The notes below the pieces were generated by a model. That model ran no database searches. It worked only from the letters and a program-made list of their open reading frames with translations, and was not told the origin of the DNA. The position numbers were made by a program, and so were the translations under genes. Below are positions 2,616 through 31,249 of a DNA stretch of 64,000 nucleotides, piece after piece. Positions within the stretch are counted from its first letter, which is position 1. Each line of letters starts with the position of its first letter. Origin of the DNA: a virus; the IMG/VR virus record IMGVR_UViG_3300002835_000050, positions 1 through 64,000 of that record; one strand, given 5' to 3'.

Positions 2616-2616
2616 T

Positions 2617-2955: not shown

Positions 2956-2957
2956 TT

Positions 2958-3467
2958 ATGGCAGGTAAAGTTAAATTTTCTACAGGTAATGAAAAACATG
3001 TAGTTTATAAAAAAGCTACTAAAAAAGGTGAAGGTAAAGTTGGTGACATTATGGTTAACCATACAAACAAAAACAAAGGTACATATGATACTATTAGTTT
3101 AACCAGAACTGCAAATGCTAAGACTGTAAAACAAGGTGTTTCTGCTGAAAAAAATTGGCACAAACAAAATGATAAAACACCTAAAATGAAAACTGGAGGA
3201 TCTACACCTGCATGGACGAGATCAGAAGGAAAGAATAAAACTGGTGGTTTAAATGCTAAGGGTGTTGCTTCTTATAGAGCTGCAAATCCAGGTAGTAAAT
3301 TAAAGATGGCTGTTACAACTAAACCATCTAAATTAGATCCAGATAGTAAAGATGCTAAGAGACGCAAGAGTTTTTGTAGCAGAATGTCTGGGGTATCTGG
3401 TCCTATGAAGGATGAGAAGGGAAGACCTACAAGAAAAGCATTAGCTTTAAGAAAATGGAACTGTTAA
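2958..3467 (+). CDS. Basic two-module protein with C-terminal DUF6321-like domain
   Basis: PAWTRSEGKNKTGGLNAKG...RRKSFCSRMSG...GPMKDEKGRPTRKALALRKWNC, preceded by MKTGG. Confidence 0.6.
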   Translation: MAGKVKFSTGNEKHVVYKKATKKGEGKVGDIMVNHTNKNKGTYDTISLTRTANAKTVKQGVSAEKNWHKQNDKTPKMKTGGSTPAWTRSEGKNKTGGLNAKGVASYRAANPGSKLKMAVTTKPSKLDPDSKDAKRRKSFCSRMSGVSGPMKDEKGRPTRKALALRKWNC

Positions 3468-3480
3468 ATTTATTTATATT

Positions 3481-4365
3481 ATGAAAAAGTGTATGAAATG
3501 TGGAGGTTCCACAAAAATGGCTAAAGGTGGTACTGTATCAAAACCATTTGCTGCTGGTATTCCTTATGCTTCTGGTGCTGGTGCAACAGATGGTAAAAAC
3601 GGAATGATGAAAAAAGGTGGTGCTGTTAAAAAAGCTTTACCTAAAGCTCAAGATGGGAAAACTGTTAAAAAAGTTGGTCCTAATAAATATGCTAAAGATC
3701 AAGTAATTGTAAATAAAAAAGATGGTTCTTCAGCTTCATATGTTGCAACAAATAAAGGAACTGTATATTCTACAAAAAATAAAAAAAATGGTCCAGCAGA
3801 TGTTTTAAGTATTGATACAACAGGTTACTCAAAAGGTAAACCAAATTATGATCAAATTTATACAGGAAATGCGGGTTATAACAAAAGTACTGTAAAAAGA
3901 AAAGATGTTAAACCTTTATTAAAATCTATGAAAAAAGAAACATTAAGTTTTAAAACTGGTGGAATAACTAAAGGTGGTGTATCTGGTGAAGAACTAAGAA
4001 ACCGCGGAATTGATATGAAATACAATGGTATAGATTTAAAAGATGCTGGTACTTACCAAAAAGAACTTGGTAGAGAAATGAAAGCTGTTGGTAAAGGTTC
4101 AAAAGCTAGAGGAATGGCTATGAAAGAAAAAGGAAAAGCTTTAAAACAAGAAGCTCTTGATAAATTAAGACCTAGAAAAGTAACACAAAATTTAATGATT
4201 AATCCTGATAAAAGATCAATGTCAGCAACAGGACCAAAACCTATGATGGCTAAAAAAGGAGGAGCTGTTAAAAATGCTAAGTTAGCTGCACTTGCCGCTC
4301 CAAAAAATAAAATCACTAGAGCTGATGTTATTGTAGGTGCTAAAAGAAATGCTAAAAAGAAATAA
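3481..4365 (+). CDS. Lys-rich basic protein with repeated GG motifs
   Basis: MKCGG, MAKGG, MKKGG, FKTGG, AKKGG; C-terminal LAALAAPKNKITRADVI module. Confidence 0.55.
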   Translation: MKKCMKCGGSTKMAKGGTVSKPFAAGIPYASGAGATDGKNGMMKKGGAVKKALPKAQDGKTVKKVGPNKYAKDQVIVNKKDGSSASYVATNKGTVYSTKNKKNGPADVLSIDTTGYSKGKPNYDQIYTGNAGYNKSTVKRKDVKPLLKSMKKETLSFKTGGITKGGVSGEELRNRGIDMKYNGIDLKDAGTYQKELGREMKAVGKGSKARGMAMKEKGKALKQEALDKLRPRKVTQNLMINPDKRSMSATGPKPMMAKKGGAVKNAKLAALAAPKNKITRADVIVGAKRNAKKK

Positions 4366-4367
4366 TC

Positions 4368-4610
4368 ATGGCAACAACTAGAGCTGTAAAAACTTCTTGT
4401 AAAAATACAAAAGTTAGATCTGCAAGCGGATCATGTGTTAGTGAAAGACCATCAATGAAAAAAGGTGGAGTTGTCAAAGATAAGAAGTGGATTCAAAAAG
4501 CTATTAACCCAGCTCATAAAGGATTTTGTACACCGCTTACTAAAAAAACTTGCACACCAAAAAGAAAAGCTCTTGCTATTACTTTAAAAAAAATAGCTAA
4601 AAAGAAATAA
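4368..4610 (+). CDS. Small basic protein (MKKGG followed by KKWIQKAI module)
   Basis: 80-aa ORF tightly packed between neighbours. Confidence 0.55.
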   Translation: MATTRAVKTSCKNTKVRSASGSCVSERPSMKKGGVVKDKKWIQKAINPAHKGFCTPLTKKTCTPKRKALAITLKKIAKKK

Positions 4611-13451: not shown

Positions 13452-14033
13452 ATGAAGGAATTTAAAAAACCAGATGTAAAGGCTCCTAGATTTAGACCTG
13501 AAATAAAAAATGTTCTAGATAAAGAGTTTTTTAAATTATTTAAAAGTAAGTATCCTAAGTACAAAGACTTAGATGAAGTTTTGATTAGAACTGTTATTAA
13601 GAAGTTTAATCAAACAGTTTATCAGACAGTAATAGAAACAAGGGATGGGGTTCAATTACCAGAACAAATTGGTTGGCTGTTCATCGGAACATGTCAACAA
13701 AGTGTAAAAGAAAATATTGATTACTCAAAGTCATTGAAATATGGAGTAAAGGTAACTAACAAGAACTGGGACTCAGATGGTAAATTAGCTAAAATCTTTT
13801 TTTCCAATCATGCCCCAAAGCACAAAATAAAGAATAGAGAATTTTGGAGCTTTGTAGCATGTAGAGAATTTAAGAGAGCGGTTGCTAAAACATATCCTGA
13901 GAACTGGCAAATGTATATAGCTGCTGATCCAAAAACTAAAATACAATGGGCATACAGTAGATCAGTTTATAAAGAAATGAAAGCTAAGGAAACAACCAAG
14001 GCTTTACAAAATTATAATGAATTTGACTTATGA
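13452..14033 (+). CDS. HU/IHF-like protein of the crAss-like tail module
   Basis: Helix then GVQLPEQIGWLFI beta-hairpin (HU-like VxLxGFGxF); basic; lies upstream of ring/muzzle genes as in crAss-like phages. Confidence 0.55.
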   Translation: MKEFKKPDVKAPRFRPEIKNVLDKEFFKLFKSKYPKYKDLDEVLIRTVIKKFNQTVYQTVIETRDGVQLPEQIGWLFIGTCQQSVKENIDYSKSLKYGVKVTNKNWDSDGKLAKIFFSNHAPKHKIKNREFWSFVACREFKRAVAKTYPENWQMYIAADPKTKIQWAYSRSVYKEMKAKETTKALQNYNEFDL

Positions 14034-14692
14034 CAACAATTGGTGAAGCAATATCAAGAGTAAGGAATACCCTTAAAGCAGTTAAAGAAGATCCCTTCTT
14101 AACTGATAGAACAATCTATTATTCTCTAATGAAGTATGCACAGACATTAATCAAAAGAGAAGATAATCAAAATAGGCTTATGAAGATGAGTCAGATCTTT
14201 AAGGTTATGCCTTATGTAGAACTGATTGATGTAGATAAAGTTGAAGCAGGTTGTATTGGGGTTTACTCTGAATGTTACTTCAAAAGATCTAAAGAAAAGC
14301 TTCCTACTATTTTAAATGGAATGTTTGGTCCACTTATCCGTACAACATCATCTATTGATGGTACTATAGAAATGTTTAGAACAGATCCCGGTACATGGGC
14401 TTCAATAACTAAGTCTACTACTTTTAGATATAATAGAAAACAATACTTCTGGTATCTTAATGGTTATATATATTGTCCTAATGTAGATTGGGATGCAATT
14501 AGAATTGAAGCAATCTTTGATGGTGTACTTGAAACATGTGATACAGATCCATGTTTACTAAGACAAGATGATCAATTTGTTTTACCAGAATATTTATTTT
14601 CAGAAGTAGAACAGTTTGTAATAAAAGAATTAACAATGACTTTATCAATGCCAGGTGATGGTGCAGATGATAGTCAAAATGCATTTAGATAA
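14030..14692 (+). CDS. Tail ring/tubular protein
   Basis: Synteny; YFWYLNGYIY motif, helical N- and C-termini. Confidence 0.55.
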   Translation: MTTIGEAISRVRNTLKAVKEDPFLTDRTIYYSLMKYAQTLIKREDNQNRLMKMSQIFKVMPYVELIDVDKVEAGCIGVYSECYFKRSKEKLPTILNGMFGPLIRTTSSIDGTIEMFRTDPGTWASITKSTTFRYNRKQYFWYLNGYIYCPNVDWDAIRIEAIFDGVLETCDTDPCLLRQDDQFVLPEYLFSEVEQFVIKELTMTLSMPGDGADDSQNAFR

Positions 14693-15794: not shown

Positions 15795-18700
15795 ATGGCA
15801 GGTAAGATACAAAATACATCACAGAATATTAACCATAGTTTTACTAAAGGGTTAAATAAAGATTCAGATCCTTCTTTTGTACAAGATGGAATGTGGACAT
15901 ATGCACGTAATGCAGTAAACAATACTGTAGAAGGAGATCTAGGAGCAATCTCAAATGAGACTTCTAATTTTTTATGTGCTACAACAGGATCTACTATGCC
16001 TCCAATAGCAATCAAAAAATATATTATTGGTGCTATACAAGTTTATTCTGACAAGTGGTTAATATTTACAGCAGGTCATAATTCAAAAGGGCAACCTGTT
16101 AATTCTGAAATAGGACTATTAGAAGAAGAAAGATGTATCTATAGACCTATTGTTCAAGACTCTTGTTTAGGTTTTGATAAAAGATATTTAATATCTGGAG
16201 TATCTAGAGAAAAAGAAGATTGTACATGGCAAGTATATTTTGCAGATGGTTTAAATCCTGATAGATATCTTAATATTGGAGATCCTCAGACATGGCCTTC
16301 AAGTGGATATACTTGGATGGGAACAACAGCTGATATGAATTACTATACTAACGGTATAGATAAAATTCTTTGGCCTGGTGTACGTTGGAAAGAATTATGT
16401 AGTGACTCATTTGGAGTAACACAAACAACTCCTGGAGTTTGGCCAACAGGTAGTCCACAAGGATGTATAATTTGTAAAGACTTAAACTCATTAGATTGTG
16501 ATAAGATTAGATTAGCAAGACTAATGACTACACCCTGTCTTAAATTACGTCCAGGTTCATCTGGTGGTACTCTAAGAAATGGAACATATTTTGCTGTTAT
16601 AGCTTATACTATTAAAGGACAAAAAGTAACAGACTATTTTTCTCCAAGTAATACTCAACCTTTATGGACAGTAAATGATTCTGAAAGTTCACTTACACTT
16701 ACAATAGAAGCAGACTTTGTTAACTTTGATGAGTTTGTATTAGTGATAGTACAAAATATTAATCAAGGAACCGTTGCAAGACAGATTGGTACATACTCAA
16801 CTAAAACTACAAGAATTGAATTAGATCAGATAAAGGAAGATCTTATTACAGTTCCTACAGAGTTTTTACCAATACAAACTCCTGTATTTGAAAAGTCAGA
16901 TCAAATTGCTGAAGTAAATAATTACTTGCTTAGAGTAGGACCTACTTCTAAGTTTGATTTTAACTACCAACCATTAGCTAATTTAATTAAAGCTAAGTGG
17001 GCTTCAGTAGAATACCCAGCTGATTATTATGTGAAAGGTGGTTGGAAAGGAAGTTACTTAAGAGATGAAGTATATGCATTCTTTATCCGTTGGGTATATG
17101 ATACAGGAGATAAATCTTCATCATACCATATTCCAGGAAGAGCTCCTTCAACTTATACTTTACCTACATCAGGTAACTCAGTAGGAGAACTATTACTTAT
17201 ACCTAATGATCAAAATGCATTAGCTCCTGATGATCAAGTATTTGATGTATACAATACAGCAAGTGTTGATCCAGGCTCAACTTTAGTAAATACTGTATTA
17301 GAAGATGGAGGTAAGATTCTTGAAGTAGGTACTATGGGTTACTGGGAATCAACGGAAACATATCCTGATAATCAAGATTTTATTTGGAATGCTAGTTCAC
17401 ACTGCTGGACAGGAAAACAAAATTCTCCAAGTCAAGTATATGATCTATGTGGTTTACCAATAAGACATCATAAGTTTCCAGATAACTGTTTAAGCCCAAA
17501 CACTACACATTTTAAAAGTAATCCTAATTCATCTACACAAGGTGACTTGTTGAATATTAGAATTATGGGTGTATACTTTGAAAATATTATAACACCAAAA
17601 GATAATGAAGGTAATGAAGTAACAGGTGTTGTTGGTTATGAAATATTAAGAGGTTCTAGAGAAGGTAACAAATCTATCATTGCAAAAGGAATGATTAACA
17701 ATGTTAGAACTTATGCTATTAAAGGATCTGCAGCAAGAGGAAGAACAGGTATTTATCCTAACTATCCTTTTAACACAATTAAACCATTAAATAATATTGG
17801 TAGTAACGGTCAGGGTAACTATAATCTTAATGATCCTTATATTAGAATGACACCTACAGGATCAAATACTATAATAAATCAAACTATTCCTAAAGATATT
17901 GTTACTTTCCATTCACCGGATACAATGTTTAGAACACCTTTCTTATCTACTACAGAATTAAAACTCTATGGTTCTTTGTCAGGTTATTCTACACAAAACT
18001 TTCAGGATCCAGCTGAGCATCCTAAGTTTAAATTATTATCTGATTTTGTTATATTACCAATGTTCATGGTAGGTCTTGCTGAAGCAGTTGTATCTATCAC
18101 AGGTAAAAGAACAATGAATACATTAAGCCAACAAGATGTTTCTGCAGCATATGATACAAACTTATCAACTGTACCAGGAGTAGGAAATTCTCCAAGTTTA
18201 GTAGCTATTCCTCAACTAGCTGCTGCTAACGCAGCTATTAGTGTATATAATACAGCTGTAGAACTTTATTATAATTCAGCAGGAGGTTTATTTTTAGATG
18301 CTTTTGCTGTTATGTTTGGAGGTATTGATTCAAGTGTTCAAGCAATTGCTCAATCAACTTTACAATCAACATTAAATGGTATTGCTCTTTCAGGAACTTC
18401 TGGTTTAGGATATATTCCTTCTTTTACAGGTACTATTGAATATCCTTCTTATGCATATCTTCCTGGATTATTAAGAGCATTAGGGGGTATTAATCAATTC
18501 TTGTTTTATTTTGCTGAAGGGGCCAATACAAGTTTAGATTTTATTAATGCTATGCTACCATATGAGCAATTTGGAATGCAGTCACTTGCTCATGGTTTTT
18601 ATAGTGCTATGACTCCAGAAAATACTAAGACTGATATTGTTAGATTTAGAACTCCAGATAGTTTTTACATTAGAGATAATATTCAAGAAATCCCTAAATA

Positions 18701-21266
18701 TCAAGATAGTACAGGAACATATTATTCTTACTCAATTAATAATTTAAAAAGATCAGATGCTGTTACAGTAAGAACTGTAAATGGTAAAGGTGTAAGTACA
18801 GGTCCCGTATTTCTTAATACAGATAAATCTTTAGTTACATTAGGATCATTAATGAAAGCTGCCGTTAATTCAGAACCTGGTATATTACCTGGAGAAAAAC
18901 CAAGTTTTACAAATATTGATATTCCTTTTAGTTTACCAATTGCTAGTCATTATGGGGGACTAAAAGTTAGATTAAGAAATCAATATGGTCAATTACAAGG
19001 TATTAAACAAATTCCAATTACGCCTTGTGAACAAAAAATTGGTTCAGCGGATAATGCTTTTATAAGTCTTAATACAGGTCTAGTATGTCCTAGTATTACT
19101 ACAACTCCTGGAAGTGTTGTAATTAATACAGTATTAGCAAGTACACCAATATTCTTTGGAGGAGATACCTTTATAAATAGATACACAGAGAAAAATACTT
19201 TCTTTTATTTCTATGATTGGTTATTTGGTCAACCAGATGGATTTGAATATAACTACTATCAACATCAAATGATTCCTTCACCTAGATTTGCTGTAAACAA
19301 TATTAGATATGATGTTGGCGATATGGCAAGTGGTATTACAGATATATCAGCTCCCCCTGCACAAGGTACAGGAGCACTACCCTCTTCATTTTATAATTTA
19401 GATTGGGAAAACTATCACTATGAGGATGATGACCCAGGAGATTATCCAGGATTGTTTGGTGCAACAAGATGTAAATTTTATTTAGCTAATTCATCTGTAA
19501 GAGACTTTTTTGTTGAATCTGATGTATTAGTTGACTTTAGACAACAAGGTCTTGAGGAAGGAGCTAAACACTATGATCCATATAGATATACAAACTATCC
19601 GGCAATGTTTAATATGAATCCTCAAATTATTACAAGAGGTAATGAATATAGATATGATTACTCATTAAGTATATCCAAAGCATTTACTCAGTATTTTTCT
19701 CAAGGATCTTTACAAAGTAGATACTATGATCCTAATGTAGCCAAGTTATGTTATACATATTATCCTGATAGAATTTACTATTCACTACAACAACAGAATG
19801 AATCATTTAAAGATAGTTGGTTTGTTTACTTACCAAATAACTATAATGAATTTAAGTCTCAAGTCAGTGGAGTAAAGTCTATTAATAAAAGTGGTTTGTT
19901 TATTACTTTTAAAAATGATAGTCCATTAATGTACCAAGGTGTTGATACACTTCAAACAGATTTAAGTACTAAGATTACTATTGGTGACGGAGGTTTATTT
20001 AGTCAACCAGGACAATCTGTATCTAATGCAGATAAACCCTATGAATATGGATCATCTCAAAGTAGACTAGCTGTTATTTCTACACCTGCTGGATTATTTT
20101 ATATGTCTGAGAATCAGGCTAAGATATTTAACTATTCAGGTGGCTTAAAAGAAATTTCACAAACAGGTCTTAAGTGGTGGTTTACACTATTCTTACCATA
20201 TAAGTTAACTGATGATTTTCCAGATTATCCATATCAAGATAATCCAGTAGCTGGTATTGGTTGTCAAGCAATGTATGATAATACTAACTCTATTATTTAC
20301 TTTACTAAAAAAGATTATAAAGTAAAAGATGAATATAAAGGATTAGTAACATATGTACCTCTAATTACTTTTGGAGCATTAAAAGGACAAGGAGATTACT
20401 TTGTTTTAGATGGTAAAGGAAAATATTTAATTGGTGATCCAATGATATTTGAAGATGCTTCTTGGACATTAAGTTATGACCCTAAGAATGAATTTTGGAT
20501 TAGTTATCATGACTGGCATCCAGATTTATCTATGCCTACTAAGTCATACTTTATGACAAGTAAAGAAAATACTATTTGGAAACATAATTATGTTTGTGAC
20601 AGCTACTGTAACTACTATGGACAGAATTATCCATTTGAAGTTGAGATACCAATTATTACAGGTGAAACAGTTACTACATTAAAATCTGTTCAGTACATTC
20701 TAGAGTGTTATAAAAGAGATAGTTATAACTGTGTAGATCAGTTTCAAGTACTAGACTTTAACTTTGATAAAGCTGTAGTCTATAATATGGAACAAGTTTC
20801 TGGATACCTTAACTTAAATATATTCCCTAAGAATAATATCACATTAAGTTTAGAATATCCAAAACCACGTCCAGGTATAATTATTGAACCTAATGTACAA
20901 CCATTACCAGGATTTGATATCTTATTTTCTAAAGAAGAAAATAAATACAGATTTAATCAGTTCTGGGATATTACAAGAAACAGAGGAGAGTTTCCAAATG
21001 GAGCTGGTTATCCACCACAAGGTACATTAGTACCAGGAACAACAGTGCTTGCAGGTAATTATACTCAAGAGTACTTATGGGTAACACAATCAAATGGTTA
21101 CATTAAAACATTGAATCCAAATAATATGGATATTGCAAAACCATTACTTCAAAGAAAGAAGTTCAGACATTATCTAAACTTTTTAAATTTAAGAAAAGAT
21201 GTGTCAGGAGATGTCAATATGATATTGAAATTAACAAGTACTAAGAATCAATTATCCAATAGATAA
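15795..21266 (+). CDS. Tail stabilization/muzzle protein (P22 gp10-like)
   Basis: 1823 aa; N-terminal FTKGLNKD...YARNA; GYWESTETYP...IRHHKFP; WTLSY...WISYHDWHP near the C-terminus. Confidence 0.75.
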   Translation: MAGKIQNTSQNINHSFTKGLNKDSDPSFVQDGMWTYARNAVNNTVEGDLGAISNETSNFLCATTGSTMPPIAIKKYIIGAIQVYSDKWLIFTAGHNSKGQPVNSEIGLLEEERCIYRPIVQDSCLGFDKRYLISGVSREKEDCTWQVYFADGLNPDRYLNIGDPQTWPSSGYTWMGTTADMNYYTNGIDKILWPGVRWKELCSDSFGVTQTTPGVWPTGSPQGCIICKDLNSLDCDKIRLARLMTTPCLKLRPGSSGGTLRNGTYFAVIAYTIKGQKVTDYFSPSNTQPLWTVNDSESSLTLTIEADFVNFDEFVLVIVQNINQGTVARQIGTYSTKTTRIELDQIKEDLITVPTEFLPIQTPVFEKSDQIAEVNNYLLRVGPTSKFDFNYQPLANLIKAKWASVEYPADYYVKGGWKGSYLRDEVYAFFIRWVYDTGDKSSSYHIPGRAPSTYTLPTSGNSVGELLLIPNDQNALAPDDQVFDVYNTASVDPGSTLVNTVLEDGGKILEVGTMGYWESTETYPDNQDFIWNASSHCWTGKQNSPSQVYDLCGLPIRHHKFPDNCLSPNTTHFKSNPNSSTQGDLLNIRIMGVYFENIITPKDNEGNEVTGVVGYEILRGSREGNKSIIAKGMINNVRTYAIKGSAARGRTGIYPNYPFNTIKPLNNIGSNGQGNYNLNDPYIRMTPTGSNTIINQTIPKDIVTFHSPDTMFRTPFLSTTELKLYGSLSGYSTQNFQDPAEHPKFKLLSDFVILPMFMVGLAEAVVSITGKRTMNTLSQQDVSAAYDTNLSTVPGVGNSPSLVAIPQLAAANAAISVYNTAVELYYNSAGGLFLDAFAVMFGGIDSSVQAIAQSTLQSTLNGIALSGTSGLGYIPSFTGTIEYPSYAYLPGLLRALGGINQFLFYFAEGANTSLDFINAMLPYEQFGMQSLAHGFYSAMTPENTKTDIVRFRTPDSFYIRDNIQEIPKYQDSTGTYYSYSINNLKRSDAVTVRTVNGKGVSTGPVFLNTDKSLVTLGSLMKAAVNSEPGILPGEKPSFTNIDIPFSLPIASHYGGLKVRLRNQYGQLQGIKQIPITPCEQKIGSADNAFISLNTGLVCPSITTTPGSVVINTVLASTPIFFGGDTFINRYTEKNTFFYFYDWLFGQPDGFEYNYYQHQMIPSPRFAVNNIRYDVGDMASGITDISAPPAQGTGALPSSFYNLDWENYHYEDDDPGDYPGLFGATRCKFYLANSSVRDFFVESDVLVDFRQQGLEEGAKHYDPYRYTNYPAMFNMNPQIITRGNEYRYDYSLSISKAFTQYFSQGSLQSRYYDPNVAKLCYTYYPDRIYYSLQQQNESFKDSWFVYLPNNYNEFKSQVSGVKSINKSGLFITFKNDSPLMYQGVDTLQTDLSTKITIGDGGLFSQPGQSVSNADKPYEYGSSQSRLAVISTPAGLFYMSENQAKIFNYSGGLKEISQTGLKWWFTLFLPYKLTDDFPDYPYQDNPVAGIGCQAMYDNTNSIIYFTKKDYKVKDEYKGLVTYVPLITFGALKGQGDYFVLDGKGKYLIGDPMIFEDASWTLSYDPKNEFWISYHDWHPDLSMPTKSYFMTSKENTIWKHNYVCDSYCNYYGQNYPFEVEIPIITGETVTTLKSVQYILECYKRDSYNCVDQFQVLDFNFDKAVVYNMEQVSGYLNLNIFPKNNITLSLEYPKPRPGIIIEPNVQPLPGFDILFSKEENKYRFNQFWDITRNRGEFPNGAGYPPQGTLVPGTTVLAGNYTQEYLWVTQSNGYIKTLNPNNMDIAKPLLQRKKFRHYLNFLNLRKDVSGDVNMILKLTSTKNQLSNR

Positions 21267-22357
21267 TGACTAATAAAAAAGTTCTATCCAAAGCTGTATC
21301 TGAATTAGATAAAGCAAAGGCTCCGGCAAAACCTAAAGATATAATCACTGATCCAATGGGTCAGTGGAAATATCCTGGACAAGTTACCAGAATACCTTCT
21401 GATAATATAACAATGCAAGGTGTTAATTATCCAGTATGGGCACAACCTAATATAGGCCCTGGTATGATGATGCAACCAGGTCAAGATTACATGTTTCCAG
21501 AAGCTGATTATGTAGATGAATATCCTCAAATGAAAAGAGGAGGGTCTAAAAAAAATAAAAAGTATACTAGGAATATTACTGCTCTTAATAAACTTTTTGC
21601 TGAAAACTATTTATTTAAAAAACCAGGTAAGAAACAAATCTATGATCCTAATACTCCACTATTTGAAGATGGAGGATATATTGAAGAAGACATATCTGTA
21701 CCTTCATTGCAAAATAATGTATTTGCTCCAGGTGGTGTTGTAGATCTTAATCCTGAAACAATGAAAAAATATCTTGCTGCTTTAAAGGTACAAGAGAATA
21801 ATGAAAATACAGGACTTAGAAAAAATAAATGGTATCCTTATCCAAGTTCTGAAAAAGGAACTGATACAATTGCTTATGGTCATAAATTATTACCAGGAGA
21901 ACAAAAGTATTATGAAGGCATAACTACACAACAAGCTGAAGCTTTAGCAAGAAAAGATGTATTAGAAAAACAAGAATCTGCTAAAGGACGTATTGATAAA
22001 AAATATGGTAAGGGTACATTTGATAAGTTACCACAGGATGCTCAAATGTTATTAGTTGATTATCAGTATAATGTAGGTTTACAAAAGTTTCCTAAATTTG
22101 TAGAAGCTGTAATAAAAGGTGATAAGCCTACAATGCTAAAAGAATATGAAAGAACTTCTGATGTAGGTAAGTTAACTAAAAGAAATAATTGGACTAAAGA
22201 GGTTATTGACAACTTAGAATATCCTGTAATTAAAAAACCAGCAAAAGCTAAAGTTGCAAGTCTAGAATCTGAAAATGATTATACAGAAGCAGAACTAACC
22301 CCAGAAGAAATAGAGTGGTATAAATCACAAGGTTATATAGTAGAAGAACTTGATTAA
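21266..22357 (+). CDS. Virion-associated lysozyme (T4/GH24-like domain) with N-terminal accessory module
   Basis: LKVQEN...YP..EKGTDTIAYGHKL...FDKLPQDAQMLLVDYQYNVG..KFPKFVEAVIKGD. Confidence 0.65.
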   Translation: MTNKKVLSKAVSELDKAKAPAKPKDIITDPMGQWKYPGQVTRIPSDNITMQGVNYPVWAQPNIGPGMMMQPGQDYMFPEADYVDEYPQMKRGGSKKNKKYTRNITALNKLFAENYLFKKPGKKQIYDPNTPLFEDGGYIEEDISVPSLQNNVFAPGGVVDLNPETMKKYLAALKVQENNENTGLRKNKWYPYPSSEKGTDTIAYGHKLLPGEQKYYEGITTQQAEALARKDVLEKQESAKGRIDKKYGKGTFDKLPQDAQMLLVDYQYNVGLQKFPKFVEAVIKGDKPTMLKEYERTSDVGKLTKRNNWTKEVIDNLEYPVIKKPAKAKVASLESENDYTEAELTPEEIEWYKSQGYIVEELD

Positions 22358-22399
22358 ACTTATTAAGTTTATTGAATAAATTAAAATTTACTATATTTA
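22355..22399 (+). promoter_or_regulatory. Putative late promoter with 17-bp palindrome (TAAACTT-att-AAGTTTA-N20-TATATTTA)
   Basis: Perfect inverted repeat at 22355-22371; TATATT at 22392. Confidence 0.55.
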
Positions 22400-22414
22400 A
22401 TTATAACTAGTTAT

Positions 22415-25400
22415 ATGAAAAAAAGAGTAAGATTATATAAGGCACAAGAAGGTGGTACACCTGATGTCAATATGTTAAGTTACCCAGGTGCTCAAGCGCA
22501 ACAATCTGATGAAGGATCCAATGATCAATTAGTATCTATGATATTAAGTGATATTGGTAATTCTTTATCTAAAGATCAAATTGTAGGTAAGTTAGTTACT
22601 GTATTTAATACAGATCCAAATGAAGCAAATCAAATTGTAGATCAAGTTTTTAAATATGTAGAACAACAAAAACAATCTGAGATAGAAGCTGCTGATGATG
22701 AGGACAATGAAGAAGATGTTCAAGAAACTGTTGTAGCTGAAGAAGAAGTTGTAGAAGAACCTGAAAGTAGAGGACAGACTGGTACTCAAATGTCTAATGA
22801 AATAATTGATGAATGGGATGATTCATCTGCTGATGATACAGAATTTTCTTCAAATTTAGTTATGCAGTATGGTGGTTATCCAATGGCACAAGAAGGTATG
22901 GAAGTACCAATTCAAATGCCAGATGTAAGTTCTTACTTGCCTCAAGATATGGCTGATTATTTAGGAGGAACAACTAATCCTTATTCAGGTTTAGCATGGA
23001 ATTCTCCAGATCAAACAGAAAATATAGTAGAGGATGAAGAAGTATTTTCTGATTATACTGAGCCAGAATTACCTGAAGAAAGATTTGGTGGTATGCCAAG
23101 TAAAAGAAGTTATGTAAATTCTGTTCTTAAGTTGGTTAAGAAACAAATGGGTGGTGATAGTGCTGCTCCAGAATCTGCTAAATATGATGATGACAATGCT
23201 GATCCAACAGGTGCTAATGTAAGAAAGAAAGCATTAGATAAATTTATTGGATCTGTTAAGAATCAATCTGGTATGGCTTTAGCTAAACAACAAGCAGAGC
23301 AACAGTATGAACAAATGATGCAACAGCAAATGGCTATGCAACAATATCCTATGGCTCAACAAGGAGGAGAACAAGATACTGAAAATCCAATGCATCATCT
23401 ACAAGCATTTTCTCAATCTATGAACAATGTTTTTGATGATCAACAAAATGAATTAGTACAAGCTCAATTTGGTGGTTTATTTGGTAGAAGAAGAATGAAT
23501 AACATGATGCAACAAGGTATGCCTATGATACCTGGAATGCCTCCTATTACTAAAATTGATGTAAGAAAATCAGGTTGGTTATTTAATAGACCAAAAGAAT
23601 ATTCAATTGAATTTGGTGCATATAGTCCAATGCCTGGAATGAGTCCACAAGGATTACCACCTCAAGCATATGGTTATAGTACAAGAACTATTAAAACACC
23701 TGCTAAAAGAATTAAAGTAGAAACAACAGCTGAAGTAGTTAATAATGAAGCTATTAAAGAAGTATCTGCTGCTACTCCTACATCTGATGCAACTACAAAA
23801 GCAGCTGATGCCCCTGTTACAACTACAACTCCAGTAACTACAAGTACGGGCACTAAAAATGTTCCTATAAAAGTAAATCCAAAAGTTGTAGATAAAATTA
23901 AAACAGATAATAAAGTAAATAGTAAAAATACTAAAGATGGTATTTATGCATATGGTACTGCAGATGGTACATACAAAAAACAAAATGGTATTTGGTATGT
24001 AAACCGTGGTGTTAAAACAAAAATGCAGTACTTACCTATAACTGATCAAAGAAGAATTAATGAGTTAAATAAAAAAGCAGATTATAAAGGAGAGGCTAGT
24101 AAACAAGAAGATGGTAAGTTTACTATGCAAAATCCTTTTGGATATAATCCTGCTATAGATCCTCGTACAGGTAACTATAGACCAATGAGTGCAATTGCTG
24201 ATGATGACTTTGTACAAACAGCAGCTTTTTTAGGCGCAGCTGGTAGAGTAGGAAGCGGAACTGCAGATGTCTTAGAACAATTTACATTTAAAAGACCAAC
24301 TAACCTTTTAGGTAAAGGAAGAAACATGGTTAATCCAGGACAACCTATGTTAGGACCAGGACAACCTATGCTTAATCCAGGTCAAGGATTAATTAATCCT
24401 CCTGGAGGTTTTCAATATGCTTTACCATTTCAAGAAGGTGGTGTAGTAGATAATCCTTTTGCAGATGAGTATGGTAATCTACAACAATTTATTGGTGGTG
24501 GAGATGAAGATATTACACAAGGAGATTTAGATGATGTTTATTCTAAAGATACAGCTAATGGAGATTTTCCTATGGCTCAATGGGGTGGTGTAATAGAAGC
24601 TTTATTTCCTGCTAATATTATGCCTAGACGTTATGGAAGAGGATATTCTCAAATGGTAGGTTCACCTTATGATCCTAGAACTAAGATGGCTATGCCTAAT
24701 TTTATGCCAGGACCTGGAGCGCATCTTAATAAAATTGATGTAACTAAATCAAATTGGTTAACAGGAGCTCCAAAGAAATATACTGTAACTTATGGTCAAA
24801 CTATGGCAGGTCCAAGAAATCAGCCAGGTTTACCTAACTCAGGGACTAATACTCCTCAGACTCAAATGAGAAACTCTAAGAGAACTGATATTCCTGATGA
24901 TTTAAGTTTAGCTGCTAAAATGGCTATTAACAGAGGTGATAGACAAACTGCTAGAAATGATAGAAGATTAGCAAGACATCCTGAGTATTTAGAATCTCCA
25001 TTTACTCCTGAACAACAAGAAGCTAGAAAGTTATTTAAAAAAGTAACTGGTCCTAAAGAACCTGTTAAACCAGGAATGACTGATGAGCAATTACAACAGT
25101 TTAACCAAGCAGTTAGTAATTCTGCAGGAGTACCTGGATATAATGGACAGTTTCAAAGAGGTGGTGATTTACAAAGATTTATTCCCCAAGCTCAAACAGG
25201 TATGCAAAATCCTGTAAGTTATGCTAATAATCCTGCAGTAGCTAATGTAACTCAAAATTATTTTGATAAAAACAATCAAGCTAAACCAGGTGACTTTACA
25301 GATATTTTTGCAGACTATGCTAGAGCAAATAAACAAGATGCTTCTGGTGGTTATGAACAAGAGACTGCCGTAGATTACAAAGCTAAAAAAGCTCCTGGAT

Positions 25401-26062
25401 CATTTGATGGAGAAGCAATGGTTAATACAATCAATGCTGGTGTACAAGGTGTAACAGGATTAATTAACAGAGCTCAAGATCAAAAAGCTGAAGCTAAAAT
25501 GCAAGAGAATCTTACAGCAGATAACTTATATGCATCTGATCCTAGCAAAGACCGTGGAGACTATGATACTAACTCTGGTTTATACAGATTAGATGAGATG
25601 GGTCAAAAATGGAATAGCCGTTCTAAACAATATGGTGGAGATATCTATCAAGATGGTGGTCAGAAAGCTAGATTTTATGATACAGCTATTGGTGAATATA
25701 ATCAATGGTTAGCTACTCCTGCAGCATGGCAAGAAGATCCCGAGATGTTAGCTCCAGATGGTAAAAATTTAAACTTATGTTTAGATTGTATGGATGTAGA
25801 TTGGAACAGTGAGCAAGATATAAGAGATGCTCATAAACTAATTGAAGAGGGTTACTCAACAGGAACTCACAGAAATCAAGAAGTATTTAATACAGCTTTG
25901 AAAAAATATGGATTAGAAACACCTCAGTACAGTTCTAAAAAAGCAGTATCAAAAAAACAATTTGGTGGAAATATAGGATATACTGAAGGTGATGAAGTTG
26001 ATATGACTGAAGAAGAAATAGCAGACTTTATTGCTAACGGAGGTGAATTAGAATATTTATAA
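22415..26062 (+). CDS. Low-complexity internal (cargo) virion protein with many AQxGG/QxGG motifs
   Basis: 1215 aa, acidic and Gln/Met/Pro-rich; lies between muzzle and vRNAP genes. Confidence 0.55.
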   Translation: MKKRVRLYKAQEGGTPDVNMLSYPGAQAQQSDEGSNDQLVSMILSDIGNSLSKDQIVGKLVTVFNTDPNEANQIVDQVFKYVEQQKQSEIEAADDEDNEEDVQETVVAEEEVVEEPESRGQTGTQMSNEIIDEWDDSSADDTEFSSNLVMQYGGYPMAQEGMEVPIQMPDVSSYLPQDMADYLGGTTNPYSGLAWNSPDQTENIVEDEEVFSDYTEPELPEERFGGMPSKRSYVNSVLKLVKKQMGGDSAAPESAKYDDDNADPTGANVRKKALDKFIGSVKNQSGMALAKQQAEQQYEQMMQQQMAMQQYPMAQQGGEQDTENPMHHLQAFSQSMNNVFDDQQNELVQAQFGGLFGRRRMNNMMQQGMPMIPGMPPITKIDVRKSGWLFNRPKEYSIEFGAYSPMPGMSPQGLPPQAYGYSTRTIKTPAKRIKVETTAEVVNNEAIKEVSAATPTSDATTKAADAPVTTTTPVTTSTGTKNVPIKVNPKVVDKIKTDNKVNSKNTKDGIYAYGTADGTYKKQNGIWYVNRGVKTKMQYLPITDQRRINELNKKADYKGEASKQEDGKFTMQNPFGYNPAIDPRTGNYRPMSAIADDDFVQTAAFLGAAGRVGSGTADVLEQFTFKRPTNLLGKGRNMVNPGQPMLGPGQPMLNPGQGLINPPGGFQYALPFQEGGVVDNPFADEYGNLQQFIGGGDEDITQGDLDDVYSKDTANGDFPMAQWGGVIEALFPANIMPRRYGRGYSQMVGSPYDPRTKMAMPNFMPGPGAHLNKIDVTKSNWLTGAPKKYTVTYGQTMAGPRNQPGLPNSGTNTPQTQMRNSKRTDIPDDLSLAAKMAINRGDRQTARNDRRLARHPEYLESPFTPEQQEARKLFKKVTGPKEPVKPGMTDEQLQQFNQAVSNSAGVPGYNGQFQRGGDLQRFIPQAQTGMQNPVSYANNPAVANVTQNYFDKNNQAKPGDFTDIFADYARANKQDASGGYEQETAVDYKAKKAPGSFDGEAMVNTINAGVQGVTGLINRAQDQKAEAKMQENLTADNLYASDPSKDRGDYDTNSGLYRLDEMGQKWNSRSKQYGGDIYQDGGQKARFYDTAIGEYNQWLATPAAWQEDPEMLAPDGKNLNLCLDCMDVDWNSEQDIRDAHKLIEEGYSTGTHRNQEVFNTALKKYGLETPQYSSKKAVSKKQFGGNIGYTEGDEVDMTEEEIADFIANGGELEYL

Positions 26063-26071
26063 TATACAACT

Positions 26072-28252
26072 ATGAAAGTAAGAATTAAAAAAATTCCACA
26101 AGCAAGAACAGGGTACCAAGTTAAAGGTGCTTTAGTTAATGATGTGCCAGCTTTTGGTGGAGCAGATTATAACGCATATATTGGAAAACCAAATGCAAAA
26201 GCTTCAAGAACTTTAACTGCTGTTCCAAGAGAAGAAGCAAATCTTGAGGCAGAAGGAGGAGAAACTGTAGTTGGTAATCTTGATGGAAGCATGATGCCTT
26301 CATTTAAAACAATCAAAGGCCCAAGACATACTAATGGAGGTGTTCCATTAAATTTGCCAGATGATAGTTTTATCTATAGTGATACTAAAGATATGAAGAT
26401 TAATGATGCTCATATTTTAAAAATGTTTGGTAAGCCTGCTAAAAAAGGTGGCTATACTCCAGCAGAATTATCTAAAAAGTTTGATATCCAAAAGTATAGA
26501 GAGATATTACAAAATTCTGATTCTGATAAAATTGATAGAAAGACTGCAGAGTTAATGATTAAAACATATACTCTTAAGTTAGGAGCTTTAGCATTAGCGC
26601 AAGAATCTAAAAAAGGATTTCCACAAGGTATTCCAGAAATTGCTAAACCATATATGGAAGCAAATGATATTAAAGAAGAAGATTTAATACCACAAGAATA
26701 TCAAGAACAACAGGAAAGCATGCAGTATGAGCAATCAGAGAATCCTATGATGCAACAAATGGAAGGAGCAAATGAAGCTCCTATGCAGATGCCAAATGGT
26801 GAAGCTGTTGCAATGCCTCAAGAGATGTCAGAAATGTCGCCAGAGATGATGCAAGGAGCTCCTATGGCTATGTATGGAATGCAGATGGGTGGTTATGCTT
26901 TACCTTTCTATGATGATCCTAATGAAATGGCATATGGTGGCAGTTTATATAAAGCTGCAAATGGTGTTACTACAGGAGATCCTAAAGTATCTACTAGTGG
27001 AAGAGCACTTACTCCTGCTGAATTAGAAGAAAGAAGAAAAAAACAAGAAAAGATTAGAACTCAAAAAGGAACAACAGCTCCTGAAGGATATACTAAACTT
27101 GCAGATGGGACTTATGCTAAAGGTACTATGCGTGAAGGTGAAGTTAAACCTTTACAACCAAGACAAAAAATAACTAAACAAACTACTAATCCTGCACAAT
27201 ATAAAAAAGATATATGTGCTAAAATAAAAAGTTCTGGATATACCGCTGATCAAGCTGCTCAAATGGGATGGATTGATAAAAGTAGAGTTGGAGAATTTAA
27301 AGGTTGTGAAGGTGCAAAAAAATCTGAAGAAGAAGTTGACTTTTTAAAATTAGAAGAAGAACCTGGTACTGAAAGATGTGAATGTACTAGAAAAGATGGT
27401 ACTACATATGATCCAGGTAAAAATGATGATGATAGTTGTAAAGACTGTGAAGAAGCTATGTCAGTTCAAGAAAATAAAATGTCTTTTAAAGGTCAACAAA
27501 AACAACCTGCTGCATGGTGGTTACAGGATACTGTAAATACTATGGGTGCATTTGGTGATATGATGAGAACTAAGAAATATATGCCATGGGAAGCAAGAGT
27601 TGATCTTGAAGAACCAAGACCTACATTCTTAGATCCTACAAGAGAGTTAGCTGCACAATCTGAGCAAGCAAATATTGCTTCTCAAGCTGCTGCATCTTTT
27701 GCTGGACCTCAAGCTTTAAATGCTAGACTTTCTCAAATACAAGGACAAGGTGCTAGAGGAGCTGCTGATACTTTATCTAAAATAAATAATCAGAATGTAA
27801 ACATTGCTAATCAGTTTGAAGCTAATCAAGTTGGTGTAAGAAACCAAGAGAATATGTTGAATCAGCAAATGGCAAACAGAGTCTATGACAAAAATGTTGT
27901 AGCTAATCAACAATTTGATAATGCTAAAACTGCAGGTAGAGCTAACATGCGTCAAGCATATAATACAGCTCTTACTAATAGAGCTAAGACAGATGCTATG
28001 AATCAGTTATATCCTAACTATCAAGTTGATCCAAGTACAGGAGGTATGGTTAATTATACACCAACTGTAAAGAAAGCTGATCCAGGAGCTAAAGAAATGG
28101 ATGAATTTGAATACATGAATAAACTTAGAAAAAGTGGATTTTCAGATAAAGCTGCTGTTGATGCAATGAAAAGAAAGTTTGGTAGACTTGGTGGTCAAAT
28201 GTTTGAACATGGAGGATTTGTATACTCAGTTTTTCCTGTAGTATCACTATAA
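26072..28252 (+). CDS. Internal cargo protein
   Basis: NLEAEGGE...GPRHTNGGVP...FIYSD N-terminal module typical of crAss-like cargo proteins; Gln/Asn/Ala-rich coiled C-terminal region. Confidence 0.6.
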   Translation: MKVRIKKIPQARTGYQVKGALVNDVPAFGGADYNAYIGKPNAKASRTLTAVPREEANLEAEGGETVVGNLDGSMMPSFKTIKGPRHTNGGVPLNLPDDSFIYSDTKDMKINDAHILKMFGKPAKKGGYTPAELSKKFDIQKYREILQNSDSDKIDRKTAELMIKTYTLKLGALALAQESKKGFPQGIPEIAKPYMEANDIKEEDLIPQEYQEQQESMQYEQSENPMMQQMEGANEAPMQMPNGEAVAMPQEMSEMSPEMMQGAPMAMYGMQMGGYALPFYDDPNEMAYGGSLYKAANGVTTGDPKVSTSGRALTPAELEERRKKQEKIRTQKGTTAPEGYTKLADGTYAKGTMREGEVKPLQPRQKITKQTTNPAQYKKDICAKIKSSGYTADQAAQMGWIDKSRVGEFKGCEGAKKSEEEVDFLKLEEEPGTERCECTRKDGTTYDPGKNDDDSCKDCEEAMSVQENKMSFKGQQKQPAAWWLQDTVNTMGAFGDMMRTKKYMPWEARVDLEEPRPTFLDPTRELAAQSEQANIASQAAASFAGPQALNARLSQIQGQGARGAADTLSKINNQNVNIANQFEANQVGVRNQENMLNQQMANRVYDKNVVANQQFDNAKTAGRANMRQAYNTALTNRAKTDAMNQLYPNYQVDPSTGGMVNYTPTVKKADPGAKEMDEFEYMNKLRKSGFSDKAAVDAMKRKFGRLGGQMFEHGGFVYSVFPVVSL

Positions 28253-28315: not shown

Positions 28316-31249
28316 ATGGCTACGTATTTACAAGGTGTCACAGATTATATTCCGCAATTTCAGCCTTTTCAGCCTGACTTAAATTTCTTTGGAAATGTAA
28401 TGCAGACTAAGCAAACTCAGTATGACACAAACTGGAAAGCTTTAAATAAAATGTATGGTCAGTACTATCATGCTGATTTAACAAAGGACAGTAATATTGC
28501 AAAGAAAGATAATTACTTAAAACAAATTGAGTTTAACTTACAAAGAGTTTCTCAATTAGATTTATCATTGGAACAAAATGTAGACCAAGCTACTCAGATC
28601 TTTAAACCTTTTTATGAGGATAAAGGACTGATGAAAGATATGGCTTATACTAAAAACAATATGAATCAAGTTAGTTATGGGCAATCTTTAAAAAATGCTT
28701 ACAACCAAGTAGAAAGAGACAGATATTGGAATGAAGGTATTTTGGAATTACAATATAAAAGACAAGAGTTTAAAGAGTCAACTGATGAAGAAGCTATGTC
28801 ATTTGAAGATACTGACTATACTTCTAATGTAGATGTTATTGGTAAGGCTCAGGAAACTGCTAAGGCTGCAGGTTTATCTATTGAAACTGTTGAGTTTAGT
28901 AAAGACGGTAAATTTATTGTAAAAAATAAAAATGGTGAACAGCTTATTGAACCTTTACAAAAGTTATTTGAAGCTAAATTAGGTAGTGATCCAAGTGTAC
29001 AAGCTAAGTATAAGACATTAGCATATGTAGATAGAAAAAATTATGCAGAGTATAATGCTGCTCAATTCAAAGGTGATAAGAATGCAGCTGAAATGGAATA
29101 TCTTGAGACTAATTTCAATAGACTTAAAGCTCAAAATATAGCAAGATTCAATGCACTTAAAGCTACATCTGCATCTTATGATGCTAAAATGCAAAATATC
29201 AAAAATCAAATTGATAAAGGTCAAGCTTCTCCTGATGCTAAATTAGCCTATGATCAGTATAAGATGAATAAAGATATTAATGATGAAGTACTTGCTAGAG
29301 CTGAACAAGAACAAAAAGAGTTGAGCTCAGGACAAAATGCAGCTTCATCTACTGGCTTTATTAATCCCTATGGTGACATTAAATCTTTAAGATACAAAGT
29401 TGATAATGCAATGGCTTCTTCATTAATGCAAAAAGATTTAGATGAGGCCGCCAACATCTTTGCATTTAAAGATGCTAAACAAGATATTGATGCTAATCCA
29501 TATGCTGTTCTTGCAGAAAAACATAAATATAGCATGTCAGAAATTGCTGCTAGAAATGCTGGTTTAGAAAGAGCAGCAGCATTACGTAATGCAGGAGAAA
29601 GAAAGAACAAACTTGATGAGTATGGTTTAAAGATTGGTACACATTACCGTGATGAAAAAACAGGAGAAGTAAGACCGGTTTCTGCATTAAATGAAATTTA
29701 TACTGAGTTTAATGATAAAGGTATTAGTACTGATAAGTATAATATGAAAACAGCTAGTGATCATATTAATAATATACAATCAGAAAATGTTGCAAAACCT
29801 TTCTTAAAAAATACTTTGACTTTAATGCAAGATCTTGTAAATAAAGGTCAAATGACTCAAGAAGAAGCAAGTAAAATTTTAAGTTATGGAAAAAATCCAA
29901 AAATTTCTATAAATAAGTTTAATGATAAACTTGATAAATATGGTGCTCAGTGGTTACGTACTGAAGTGGGACCTGATGATTTAAAAAATATTCAAAAAAG
30001 AATGGATACTTGGATAAGTCAAAATGGTGAATTGTCCGGACTATCTGGAGAAGATTATAAAAGTTATCAAACGTCAGCTCTTAAGTTTGATGACTATGCT
30101 AATTATTTAAAAGCAGATATTAAATGGAGAAAAGAAAGTTCTAAAGTTGTTGTTCAAGATTTGTATAGACAAGGTTACAAAAATGCTGAGTTTTTATATG
30201 ATGAAAAAGGAAACAAAAGAAGTGAAAAAGAATTTACTGCAGCTTTAATAAAAGCTAATAAAATTAAAAAAAGTGACAAGTATAGTCAACCAGATAAAAT
30301 AAATTTTGCTCCTTTAATGTCATCACAGGCGGTTAATGAAAAAGCTCCAACTAAAGCACAAGTAGATTACAATGAATTAGTAAATGCGGCTGCTGGTGTT
30401 TATTCATCTGGTAAAGTTAAAGCTCCAGAAGGTTTTGGTAGACTTGGTAAAATGACAGGTAGTGGATTATCAACAGGTAATGTAATACCTGGTGCAAATA
30501 CTACATGGGTAAATCCAAAAGCACATGGTACTAAAAGTACTGTATGGGCTGCTGAAAACTTTAGAACTTTAGCTAATATAGATTGGTCAGATGATACAAA
30601 AAATAGAGGTTCTCTTACAGGTATTAATAAAGAAAGTTGGAACAATCATGATGCAGAAACAAATGCAAAAGTAAAATCTGTATTTGACTTAATAAAAGCT
30701 GAGCTTACAAAACCTAATACTAAGATGGCAAACTTTAGAATGACTGTGTCACCTATTGCTGCAGGTTCATTAAGTAAATCAGCTATTACTGTTTATCCTG
30801 ATGCTGCGTGGTTAAAAACTTATGTTAAATCTGGTGAAAAAAATACAGGACCCGGAGTTCTTACTACTCAAGATTATAACAATGCTATAAAAAATGGATT
30901 CTCTTATATAGTAGACTCAAAAACTTTAGCAACTAATTCAATGTATATGGCTGCATTTCAATCTCCTTTAGAAGCTCATATTAAAGCTAATAAAAAATAT
31001 GAATATGTAGATCCAAGAAACCCTAATTATAAACTTTCTATAGCTCCAAATAAATTAGGAACTAGTGACTACACAGTTATTATGGGCTACCCTCTTTATA
31101 ACCCTAACTTAGGTAAATATGAATACAGAAGTGAAAGCTTTAGTACTTCAACATTAGGAGGTAATTTAGAAACAGCTAGAGAAATGGGTGTAAGCGCGCT
31201 TGATAGTATGTGGTTGTCAAATAAAAATTTAAATAATGGCAGATATTAA
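28316..31249 (+). CDS. Internal cargo/ejection protein
   Basis: 977 aa, helical, no Cys seen; directly upstream of the vRNAP gene trio. Confidence 0.55.
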   Translation: MATYLQGVTDYIPQFQPFQPDLNFFGNVMQTKQTQYDTNWKALNKMYGQYYHADLTKDSNIAKKDNYLKQIEFNLQRVSQLDLSLEQNVDQATQIFKPFYEDKGLMKDMAYTKNNMNQVSYGQSLKNAYNQVERDRYWNEGILELQYKRQEFKESTDEEAMSFEDTDYTSNVDVIGKAQETAKAAGLSIETVEFSKDGKFIVKNKNGEQLIEPLQKLFEAKLGSDPSVQAKYKTLAYVDRKNYAEYNAAQFKGDKNAAEMEYLETNFNRLKAQNIARFNALKATSASYDAKMQNIKNQIDKGQASPDAKLAYDQYKMNKDINDEVLARAEQEQKELSSGQNAASSTGFINPYGDIKSLRYKVDNAMASSLMQKDLDEAANIFAFKDAKQDIDANPYAVLAEKHKYSMSEIAARNAGLERAAALRNAGERKNKLDEYGLKIGTHYRDEKTGEVRPVSALNEIYTEFNDKGISTDKYNMKTASDHINNIQSENVAKPFLKNTLTLMQDLVNKGQMTQEEASKILSYGKNPKISINKFNDKLDKYGAQWLRTEVGPDDLKNIQKRMDTWISQNGELSGLSGEDYKSYQTSALKFDDYANYLKADIKWRKESSKVVVQDLYRQGYKNAEFLYDEKGNKRSEKEFTAALIKANKIKKSDKYSQPDKINFAPLMSSQAVNEKAPTKAQVDYNELVNAAAGVYSSGKVKAPEGFGRLGKMTGSGLSTGNVIPGANTTWVNPKAHGTKSTVWAAENFRTLANIDWSDDTKNRGSLTGINKESWNNHDAETNAKVKSVFDLIKAELTKPNTKMANFRMTVSPIAAGSLSKSAITVYPDAAWLKTYVKSGEKNTGPGVLTTQDYNNAIKNGFSYIVDSKTLATNSMYMAAFQSPLEAHIKANKKYEYVDPRNPNYKLSIAPNKLGTSDYTVIMGYPLYNPNLGKYEYRSESFSTSTLGGNLETAREMGVSALDSMWLSNKNLNNGRY

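Follow-up and report, generated by a model that had tools for sequence, protein, structure and literature searches.

Sequence evidence for a split-junction cassette at consecutive gene boundaries in the ejected-protein block of an uncultured crAss-like phage

How podovirus-like phages load and eject several large proteins in order is an open question, and of the cargo of crAss-like phages no more than fragments of one protein have been seen. Three consecutive genes are examined here, which lie in the first 64 kb of one contig of 114,550 bp from a crAss-like phage (approximately 31 % G+C; IMG/VR record IMGVR_UViG_3300002835_000050). We refer to this stretch of 64,000 nucleotides as the window and number it from its first letter. 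The genes encode a lysozyme-family ejected protein and two large proteins, here called cargo 1 and cargo 2 (Table 1). The lysozyme protein and cargo 1 each end in a short acidic stretch, and the gene immediately downstream of each opens with a short basic one: cargo 1 starts MKKRVRLYK (22415) and cargo 2 starts MKVRIKKIP (26072). A preliminary description of this DNA had proposed that such ends are complementary halves of one small domain resembling the N-terminal domain of ribosomal protein L9, split across the gene boundaries and re-formed between the proteins, thereby coupling the lysozyme to cargo 1 and cargo 1 to cargo 2. The coordinates and sequences that it gave for the two tails and the two starts are exact. 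The question is whether tail and start belong together at each boundary and, if so, what they would do there. Comparison with relatives indicates that the acidic module and the basic strand that opens the following gene form two sides of what we call a split-junction cassette, found in the ejected-protein block of a large uncultured crAss-like clade.

The two acidic tails are copies of one module. A hidden Markov model (HMM) was made from 55 copies of the module from relatives, with the rows of the window excluded, and searched against the six-frame translation of the whole 114.5-kb genome. There were two significant matches, the C-termini of the lysozyme protein and of cargo 1; the next best match had E 0.02. 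Both copies have the strand–helix–G–strand arrangement recognized earlier, with a net charge of -7 for the class I module of the lysozyme protein and -10 for the class II module of cargo 1. The basic starts are likewise two variants of a single element, in which a P/K-A-Q/R-x-G motif comes after a basic strand; we call them type A in cargo 1 and type B in cargo 2. The net charge of the N-terminal 14-15 residues is +4 in cargo 1 and +5 in cargo 2. A loose pattern for a basic-strand start is matched by 5 of the 121 gene-like open reading frames (ORFs) of the genome, and the form common to the two starts, M-K-x-R-[VI]-[RK], is found in cargo 1 and cargo 2 only.

ORFs were called in approximately 165 related contigs and the junctions were collapsed to distinct sequences. 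All 139 distinct C-terminal modules have a gene with a basic-strand start within 150 nt downstream (131 by pattern and eight variants by eye). None of the 66 internal copies of the module is followed by a basic strand, and at junctions with no upstream module there is a basic-strand start in 20 of 326, mostly at the same cargo 1 gene. There are two pairings. A class I tail (…G-Y-x-V-E-E-x-D) is followed after 56-60 nt by a type A start (…R-V-R-I-Y-K-A), and a class II or III tail (G-D-E-V…G-G-E-x-E-Y-L) is followed after 1-11 nt by a type B start (…V-R-I-K-K-x-P-x-A-x-x-G). Three module/strand junctions occur in series in some relatives (L013, L101 and L115).

The module also occurs within proteins. 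When a 57-copy profile was searched against 1.84 billion representatives, 1011 protein clusters matched at E up to 0.001, and their proteins carry 2-5 copies each; no Pfam family matched the module. Among the best 150 matches a copy stands at the protein end in 116 of the 139 newly returned proteins. The carriers are mostly proteins in the lysozyme position, 377-2479 residues long, with a common N-domain of approximately 140 residues and varied domains (lysozyme, SET, zinc-ribbon) between the modules. The lysozyme protein of the window has 175 homologues; among the 120 listed, the middle domains differ and at least 54 have the class I tail. Internal copies have a G-G a few residues upstream and continue into S-V-P-x-L-x-Q-x-Q-K-G-G or L-P-K-A-Q-x-G, and the class II module was never found internally. 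The P/K-A-Q-x-G piece seen after internal modules also stands after the strand in both type A and type B starts. The break between the genes is thus located within a connector, and the strand is the single addition.

Two further forms of the module were observed. The lysozyme protein of the window contains a degenerate connector remnant, which looks as if the stretch between two G-G-Y-I repeats were deleted; the close relatives L001 and L002 have a full module at this place. In some lineages the place of the acidic module, at one junction or the other, is taken by a basic tail variant made up of a short strand, a basic helix and G and lacking the last strand. It is carried at the end of the lysozyme-position protein by L106, L107 and L135 and at the end of cargo 1 by L109, L112 and L120.

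Both pieces are under selection at the protein level. The V and I of the type B strand are invariant in 56 distinct nucleotide versions, in which synonymous codons are used, the invariant residues of the module are encoded by several synonymous codons among relatives, and module and strand are both kept in more than 100 related contigs. In 50 thinned orthologues of cargo 1 the first 15 residues (conservation 0.68) and the last 15 residues (0.63) are the two most conserved stretches, with values of 0.02-0.52 elsewhere. The length of cargo 1 in relatives ranges from 648 to 1726 residues.

The lysozyme gene and cargo 1 lie 56-60 nt apart at 62 of the 78 distinct junctions, and much of the spacer sequence, as well as its in-frame pseudo-translation, is alike in distant relatives. 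This spacer is conserved as DNA, and translating through it would yield a spurious hydrophobic linker; it is a candidate late promoter or regulatory site. Between cargo 1 and cargo 2 the gap is 1-11 nt and is in frame at 15 of 38 distinct junctions, near the chance expectation of one-third. Programmed read-through of the in-frame TAA was considered and rejected, because no more than these 15 junctions are in frame and none of the 50 fused proteins described below has the read-through form.

Natural fusions of the genes bear directly on the link between the two pieces. We use 'fusion' for the state of a gene pair, and the word does not fix the direction of change (fusion or fission). The core of cargo 2 is contained in 95 longer proteins and is internal in 50 of them, which are cargo 1–cargo 2 fusions. 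A module stands before the cargo 2 core in none of the 50, and 46 have no strand. The fusions form at least four groups, two of which lie on separate deep branches of the cargo 2 tree. The fused protein P0277 aligns with cargo 1 of its split relative L075 up to approximately residue 732 (of 761), and its alignment with cargo 2 begins at residue 12; it equals L075 without approximately 29 residues at the end of cargo 1 and 11 residues at the start of cargo 2. The same two pieces are missing from the fused protein P0317 in comparison with the split L034, and the fused forms join exactly at G-G sites. The simple form that stop-codon read-through would give is absent from all 50 fusions, although a point mutation of the stop could fuse the 15 in-frame junctions and keep both pieces. 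At the other boundary, L033 is a fusion across the lysozyme–cargo 1 junction and has neither the class I module nor the type A strand. A search for longer fusions of cargo 1 found none.

The two pieces have also decayed together where the genes are still separate. In the nested lineage L109/L112/L120 cargo 1 stops after the helix, so that the last strand of the module is gone, and cargo 2 starts K-K-L-K-K-L-P with no V-R-I strand. The remainder of cargo 2 is unchanged, and the sister L123 has both pieces. Taken together, these comparisons indicate that at the cargo 1–cargo 2 junction module and strand are gained, lost or decaying together and that this is tied to a broken chain. A pairing within one chain, of the N-terminal strand of cargo 1 with its own C-terminal module, was rejected: the fusions keep the type A start and lose the class II module.

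For structure prediction with AlphaFold2, a paired alignment was made by reading through the stop of eleven junctions whose gap is 9 nt and in frame. The resulting model has a strand at 39-41, a helix at 44-52 and a strand at 56-59, followed by a strand at 66-71 for the basic piece, with predicted local distance difference test (pLDDT) values of 60-73 (68 for the basic strand and approximately 70 for the module); a disordered stretch and then the confidently predicted cargo 2 domain lie downstream. When the tail is modelled by itself, a low-confidence strand from the N-terminal part of the tail acts as a surrogate. A prediction of the complex between cargo 2 residues 1-210 and the last 60 residues of cargo 1, made with alignments, gave a score of 0.03 and the tool's verdict 'no answer', which counts neither way. 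Within the module, the strongest covarying pair consists of one position in the helix and one in the last strand, which fits a strand–helix–strand fold.

The simplest function for the cassette is that of a non-covalent clasp that replaces the missing peptide bond, a reading that we favour tentatively. The module is a small strand–helix–strand connector, which also joins domains inside the long lysozyme-family proteins, where it passes straight into the P/K-A-Q-x-G-G piece. Where the chain is divided between two genes, the break comes directly after the module, and the second protein begins with an additional basic strand of 6-8 residues ahead of the same piece. Through beta-strand addition, assisted by opposite charge, this strand may pack on the final acidic strand of the module, and the two polypeptides would be held end to end with no covalent bond between them. 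In this way the lysozyme protein, cargo 1 and cargo 2 could be kept in gene order while they are loaded into the virion and later extruded N-to-C through the tail. The case for binding is stronger for cargo 1–cargo 2. It is weaker for lysozyme–cargo 1, because approximately six lineages have the strand and no upstream C-terminal module. The coupling proposed in the preliminary description is therefore retained in part: module and strand are linked, stand together at broken junctions and are absent in fusions, but the module, which has 66 internal copies and is predicted alone, is not a half domain.

Several observations weigh against a clasp. The lineages just mentioned (L078, L055, L057, L008/L064 and L106/L135) keep a canonical type A strand at the lysozyme–cargo 1 junction, and their upstream protein has no C-terminal module or has the basic variant. 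The module is frequent internally, with no partner strand, and alone (40 rows) it is predicted by AlphaFold2 with the same elements and the same confidence as with the strand, while the four-residue linker of the read-through model would itself favour a hairpin. No inter-protein pair was among the top 25 in an analysis of covariation by mutual information with average product correction in 63 junction pairs, in which the near-invariance of the strand means low power. Common ancestry and conserved gene order inflate the junction counts. In the fusions, one gene-fusing deletion takes out both ends at once, and four distant fusions retain an internal M-K-I-R-I strand with no adjacent module.

The main alternative is that strand and module are independent end signals, each docking on a part of the virion (tail lumen, ring, muzzle or portal) or serving loading or ejection, with no contact between them; they would travel together since every separate polypeptide needs its own ends. 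Signals of this kind are known, as gp45 of crAss001 has short ordered segments on the tail barrel, portal and muzzle (PMC10172136) and approximately 16 N-terminal residues of N4 gp52 lie in the adaptor lumen in 12 copies (PMC13434306). The type A strands that persist with no upstream module, the internal modules with no strand and the equal prediction of the module alone are also consistent with it. However, a C-terminal module is missing from cargo 2, a basic-strand start is missing from the lysozyme protein and both are missing from the later cargo proteins, so the pieces are not end signals of a general kind. The class II module never occurs internally and is gone in all 50 fusions, though internal class I modules are tolerated elsewhere, and the joint decay in L109/L112/L120 would have to be a coincidence. 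Independent ends explain the both-or-neither pattern less well than a clasp, and we regard them as rather unlikely. A related proposal, which is compatible with a clasp, is that both pieces are propeptides needed for assembly only, delimited by G-G and cut by a maturation protease after the cargo is loaded, in the manner of the capsid targeting sequence of phage T4. Nearly every module does have a G-G 2-8 residues upstream, another G-G follows the strand of cargo 1 (K-A-Q-E-G-G), there are many x-x-G-G motifs in these proteins, and it is at G-G that the fused forms join. Yet no protease was recognized among the 14 late proteins scanned, a subset of the genes, and the type B start of the window has T-G-Y rather than G-G after the strand, so this is improbable.

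It is improbable to a similar degree that the pieces are passive leftovers that bind nothing, the module being a conserved linker or recombination joint of a shuffled array and the basic start reflecting the needs of translation re-initiation in an AT-rich, Shine–Dalgarno-poor genome. The wide shuffling of the domains between modules, the gaps of 1-11 nt, which suggest coupled translation, and the A-rich Lys/Arg codons after the ATG are in line with this, but the invariant residues of strand and module persist despite synonymous changes, the two ends are the best-conserved parts of cargo 1 and very few genes of the genome begin in a similar way. Finally, the joined pieces might be homologous to the N-terminal domain of ribosomal protein L9, as the preliminary description suggested. 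The predicted elements can be matched to the strand–strand–helix–strand order of the L9 domain, a three-stranded sheet packed by a helix, if the N-terminal strand is placed first, and the best structural alignments of a small AlphaFold2 model were with small ribosomal proteins. These alignments had Z 2.1-2.8, which is noise level (<3) for this aligner. A Pfam hmmscan at E up to 10, run on the artificial fusion, on the junction translated through its stop, on one natural internal copy and on each of the two tails, matched no L9 family and gave two chance matches at E 0.05-0.2, and the module stands alone in its internal copies. The homology was rejected, and we consider a split L9 domain very improbable.

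If the pieces do form a clasp, there are parallels in known systems. In chaperone–usher pili, donor-strand complementation builds a head-to-tail chain, in which the N-terminal extension of the next subunit supplies a strand that completes the sheet of the previous one; the pilin has an incomplete immunoglobulin fold, which lacks its last strand, and cannot fold without the donor strand. The donor proposed here is also an N-terminal extension with alternating hydrophobic residues (K-V-R-I-K-K), predicted as a strand in the read-through model. Unlike a pilin, the acceptor is a strand–helix–strand module of approximately 25 residues that is predicted equally well alone and has internal copies with no donor strand, so the resemblance is an analogy of mechanism only. 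The capsid targeting sequence of phage T4 is a short conserved N-terminal peptide of packaged internal proteins, which targets them to the scaffold core and is cleaved off. The strand described here differs in being linked to upstream genes that end in a module.

Among ejection proteins, the C-terminal helix of gp27 in cyanophage A4 inserts in gp26 and is locked by a Cys1715-Cys5 disulfide (PMC12002296). In A4 a C-terminal element of one ejection protein engages the N-terminal region of the next and thereby ties the packaged proteins into one assembly; for the present phage such a contact is proposed from the both-or-neither pattern and a read-through model of moderate quality. The A4 contact is a long helix in a cleft with a disulfide, whereas there is no cysteine in either module or strand here and strand addition with charge is proposed instead; no sequence relation to A4 was detected. 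In crAss001 the muzzle is followed by the cargo proteins gp45 and gp46 and the RNA-polymerase proteins (PMC10172136). That phage has the same neighbourhood of ring proteins, muzzle and cargo, disordered cargo with short conserved ordered islands, and a proposed N-to-C ejection, but no lysozyme protein separates its muzzle from cargo 1, the ordered islands of its cargo bind the tail, portal and muzzle, and no end-to-end contact is reported (PMC10172136). In N4 and DEV ejection is sequential through protein–protein contact, and one ejection protein has a short N-terminal peptide that is ordered within the virion; in N4, however, this peptide docks in the lumen of the tail adaptor and not on the tail of another cargo protein, and no comparable module is described (PMC13434306).

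The genes concerned lie on the plus strand in the order muzzle, lysozyme protein, cargo 1 and cargo 2, followed by ORFs of 977, 1859, 3603 and 1936 residues (Table 1). Ring and muzzle genes directly upstream, large low-complexity proteins and a giant protein of RNA-polymerase size downstream identify the block after the muzzle as the ejected-protein block of a crAss-like phage (Crassvirales). The position of cargo 1 corresponds to that of gp45 in crAss001, which there adjoins the muzzle directly. The GH24 domain of the lysozyme protein matches Pfam Phage_lysozyme (PF00959) at residues 191-296 with 24.4 bits against a gathering cut-off of 22.3, and PHROG families of lysozymes and endolysins match the protein as well. 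Cargo 1 and cargo 2 had no match to any Pfam or PHROG family, and among GenBank phages there was no cultured relative of either, or of the lysozyme protein beyond its catalytic domain; uncultured relatives in IMG/VR and metagenomes number in hundreds, with approximately 390 for cargo 2. Nothing else in the block is as well conserved as the N-domain of cargo 2 (26200-26700), which has a mean column identity of 62 % in 39 orthologues. It is predicted by AlphaFold2 with pLDDT 80-90, and a Foldseek search against solved structures gave no match.

Table 1. Features of the ejected-protein block and of its two split junctions (window positions)
Feature	Position	Strand	Remarks
CrAss_Ring_2 (ring protein 2)	14030-14692		Just upstream of muzzle; Pfam PF25702, E 4.3e-21
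Muzzle (tail gatekeeper) protein	15795..21266	+	Pfam crAss_MUZ PF25731, E 1.8e-24; marks start of ejected-protein block
Lysozyme-family ejected protein, 363 residues	21266..22357	+	Conserved N-domain, GH24 lysozyme domain and C-terminal module
Degenerate internal connector remnant in lysozyme protein	21629..21712	+	Last strand and S-V-P-S-L piece; weak HMM match, residues 134-172, E 0.9
Class I acidic module (strand, helix, G-Y, strand)	22280..22354	+	Last 25 residues of lysozyme protein; HMM domain E 2.5e-13
Spacer between lysozyme gene and cargo 1, 57 nt	22358..22414	.	Length and sequence conserved in relatives
Cargo protein 1, 1215 residues, low-complexity	22415..26062	+	Placed right after lysozyme gene
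Type A N-terminal element of cargo 1	22415..22456	+	Basic strand then K-A-Q-E-G-G; highest conservation among 15-residue stretches in cargo 1
Class II acidic module (G-D-E-V strand, helix, G-G, strand)	25976..26059	+	Last 28 residues of cargo 1; HMM domain E 1.3e-7
Gap between cargo 1 and cargo 2, 9 nt after TAA stop	26063..26071	.	In frame here, not in most relatives
Cargo protein 2, 726 residues	26072..28252	+	N-domain (residues ~45-210) strongly conserved
Type B N-terminal element of cargo 2	26072..26116	+	Basic strand then P-Q-A-R-T-G-Y; V and I invariant; predicted strand

Some further features of the block were seen. Cargo 1 of the window has a private insert of approximately 105 residues just before its C-terminal module (25655-25969), which is bounded by G-G, contains a C-x-x-C pair and is missing from nearly all of the 50 orthologues compared. 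The C-terminus of cargo 2 (28200-28249) is a conserved hydrophobic aromatic tail following a G-G, and the protein after it opens with a conserved M-A-T-Y-L-Q-G-V-T-D-Y (28316-28380). In the distant relatives L034 and L076 the aromatic tail is gone and the start of the next protein is unaltered. A gene resembling GIY-YIG-type homing endonucleases (approximately 211-216 residues) is present in L017 (7841-8482), L018, L023, L011 and L124, directly preceding the gene after cargo 2, whose homologue in the window starts at 28316; it shares its first five or six residues with this neighbour, as though the start had been copied. Motifs of the form x-x-G-G recur at module borders in the cargo proteins (21266-28252) and in several small basic late proteins (1497-4610).

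A more far-reaching and somewhat less probable version of the clasp is that the cassette is portable and splits genes. Its approximately 120 nt would encode an acidic strand–helix–strand tail that ends at a stop and, beyond a short gap, a new start with its basic strand, and so would cut a long ejected polyprotein into genes whose products re-join non-covalently. Together with putative pairs of terminal cysteines further downstream, all the cargo might then form one ordered train, loaded and injected in gene order.

The module family, with more than 1000 clusters and absent from Pfam, is usable as a marker to annotate the ejected proteins of aquatic crAss-like phages. The small peptides of the clasp would be testable at the bench and, if their binding is tight and specific, could be used as a small protein-joining tag. 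For the phages themselves, a clasp encoded at the gene boundaries would, if true, mean that the order of the genes is the order of the chain.

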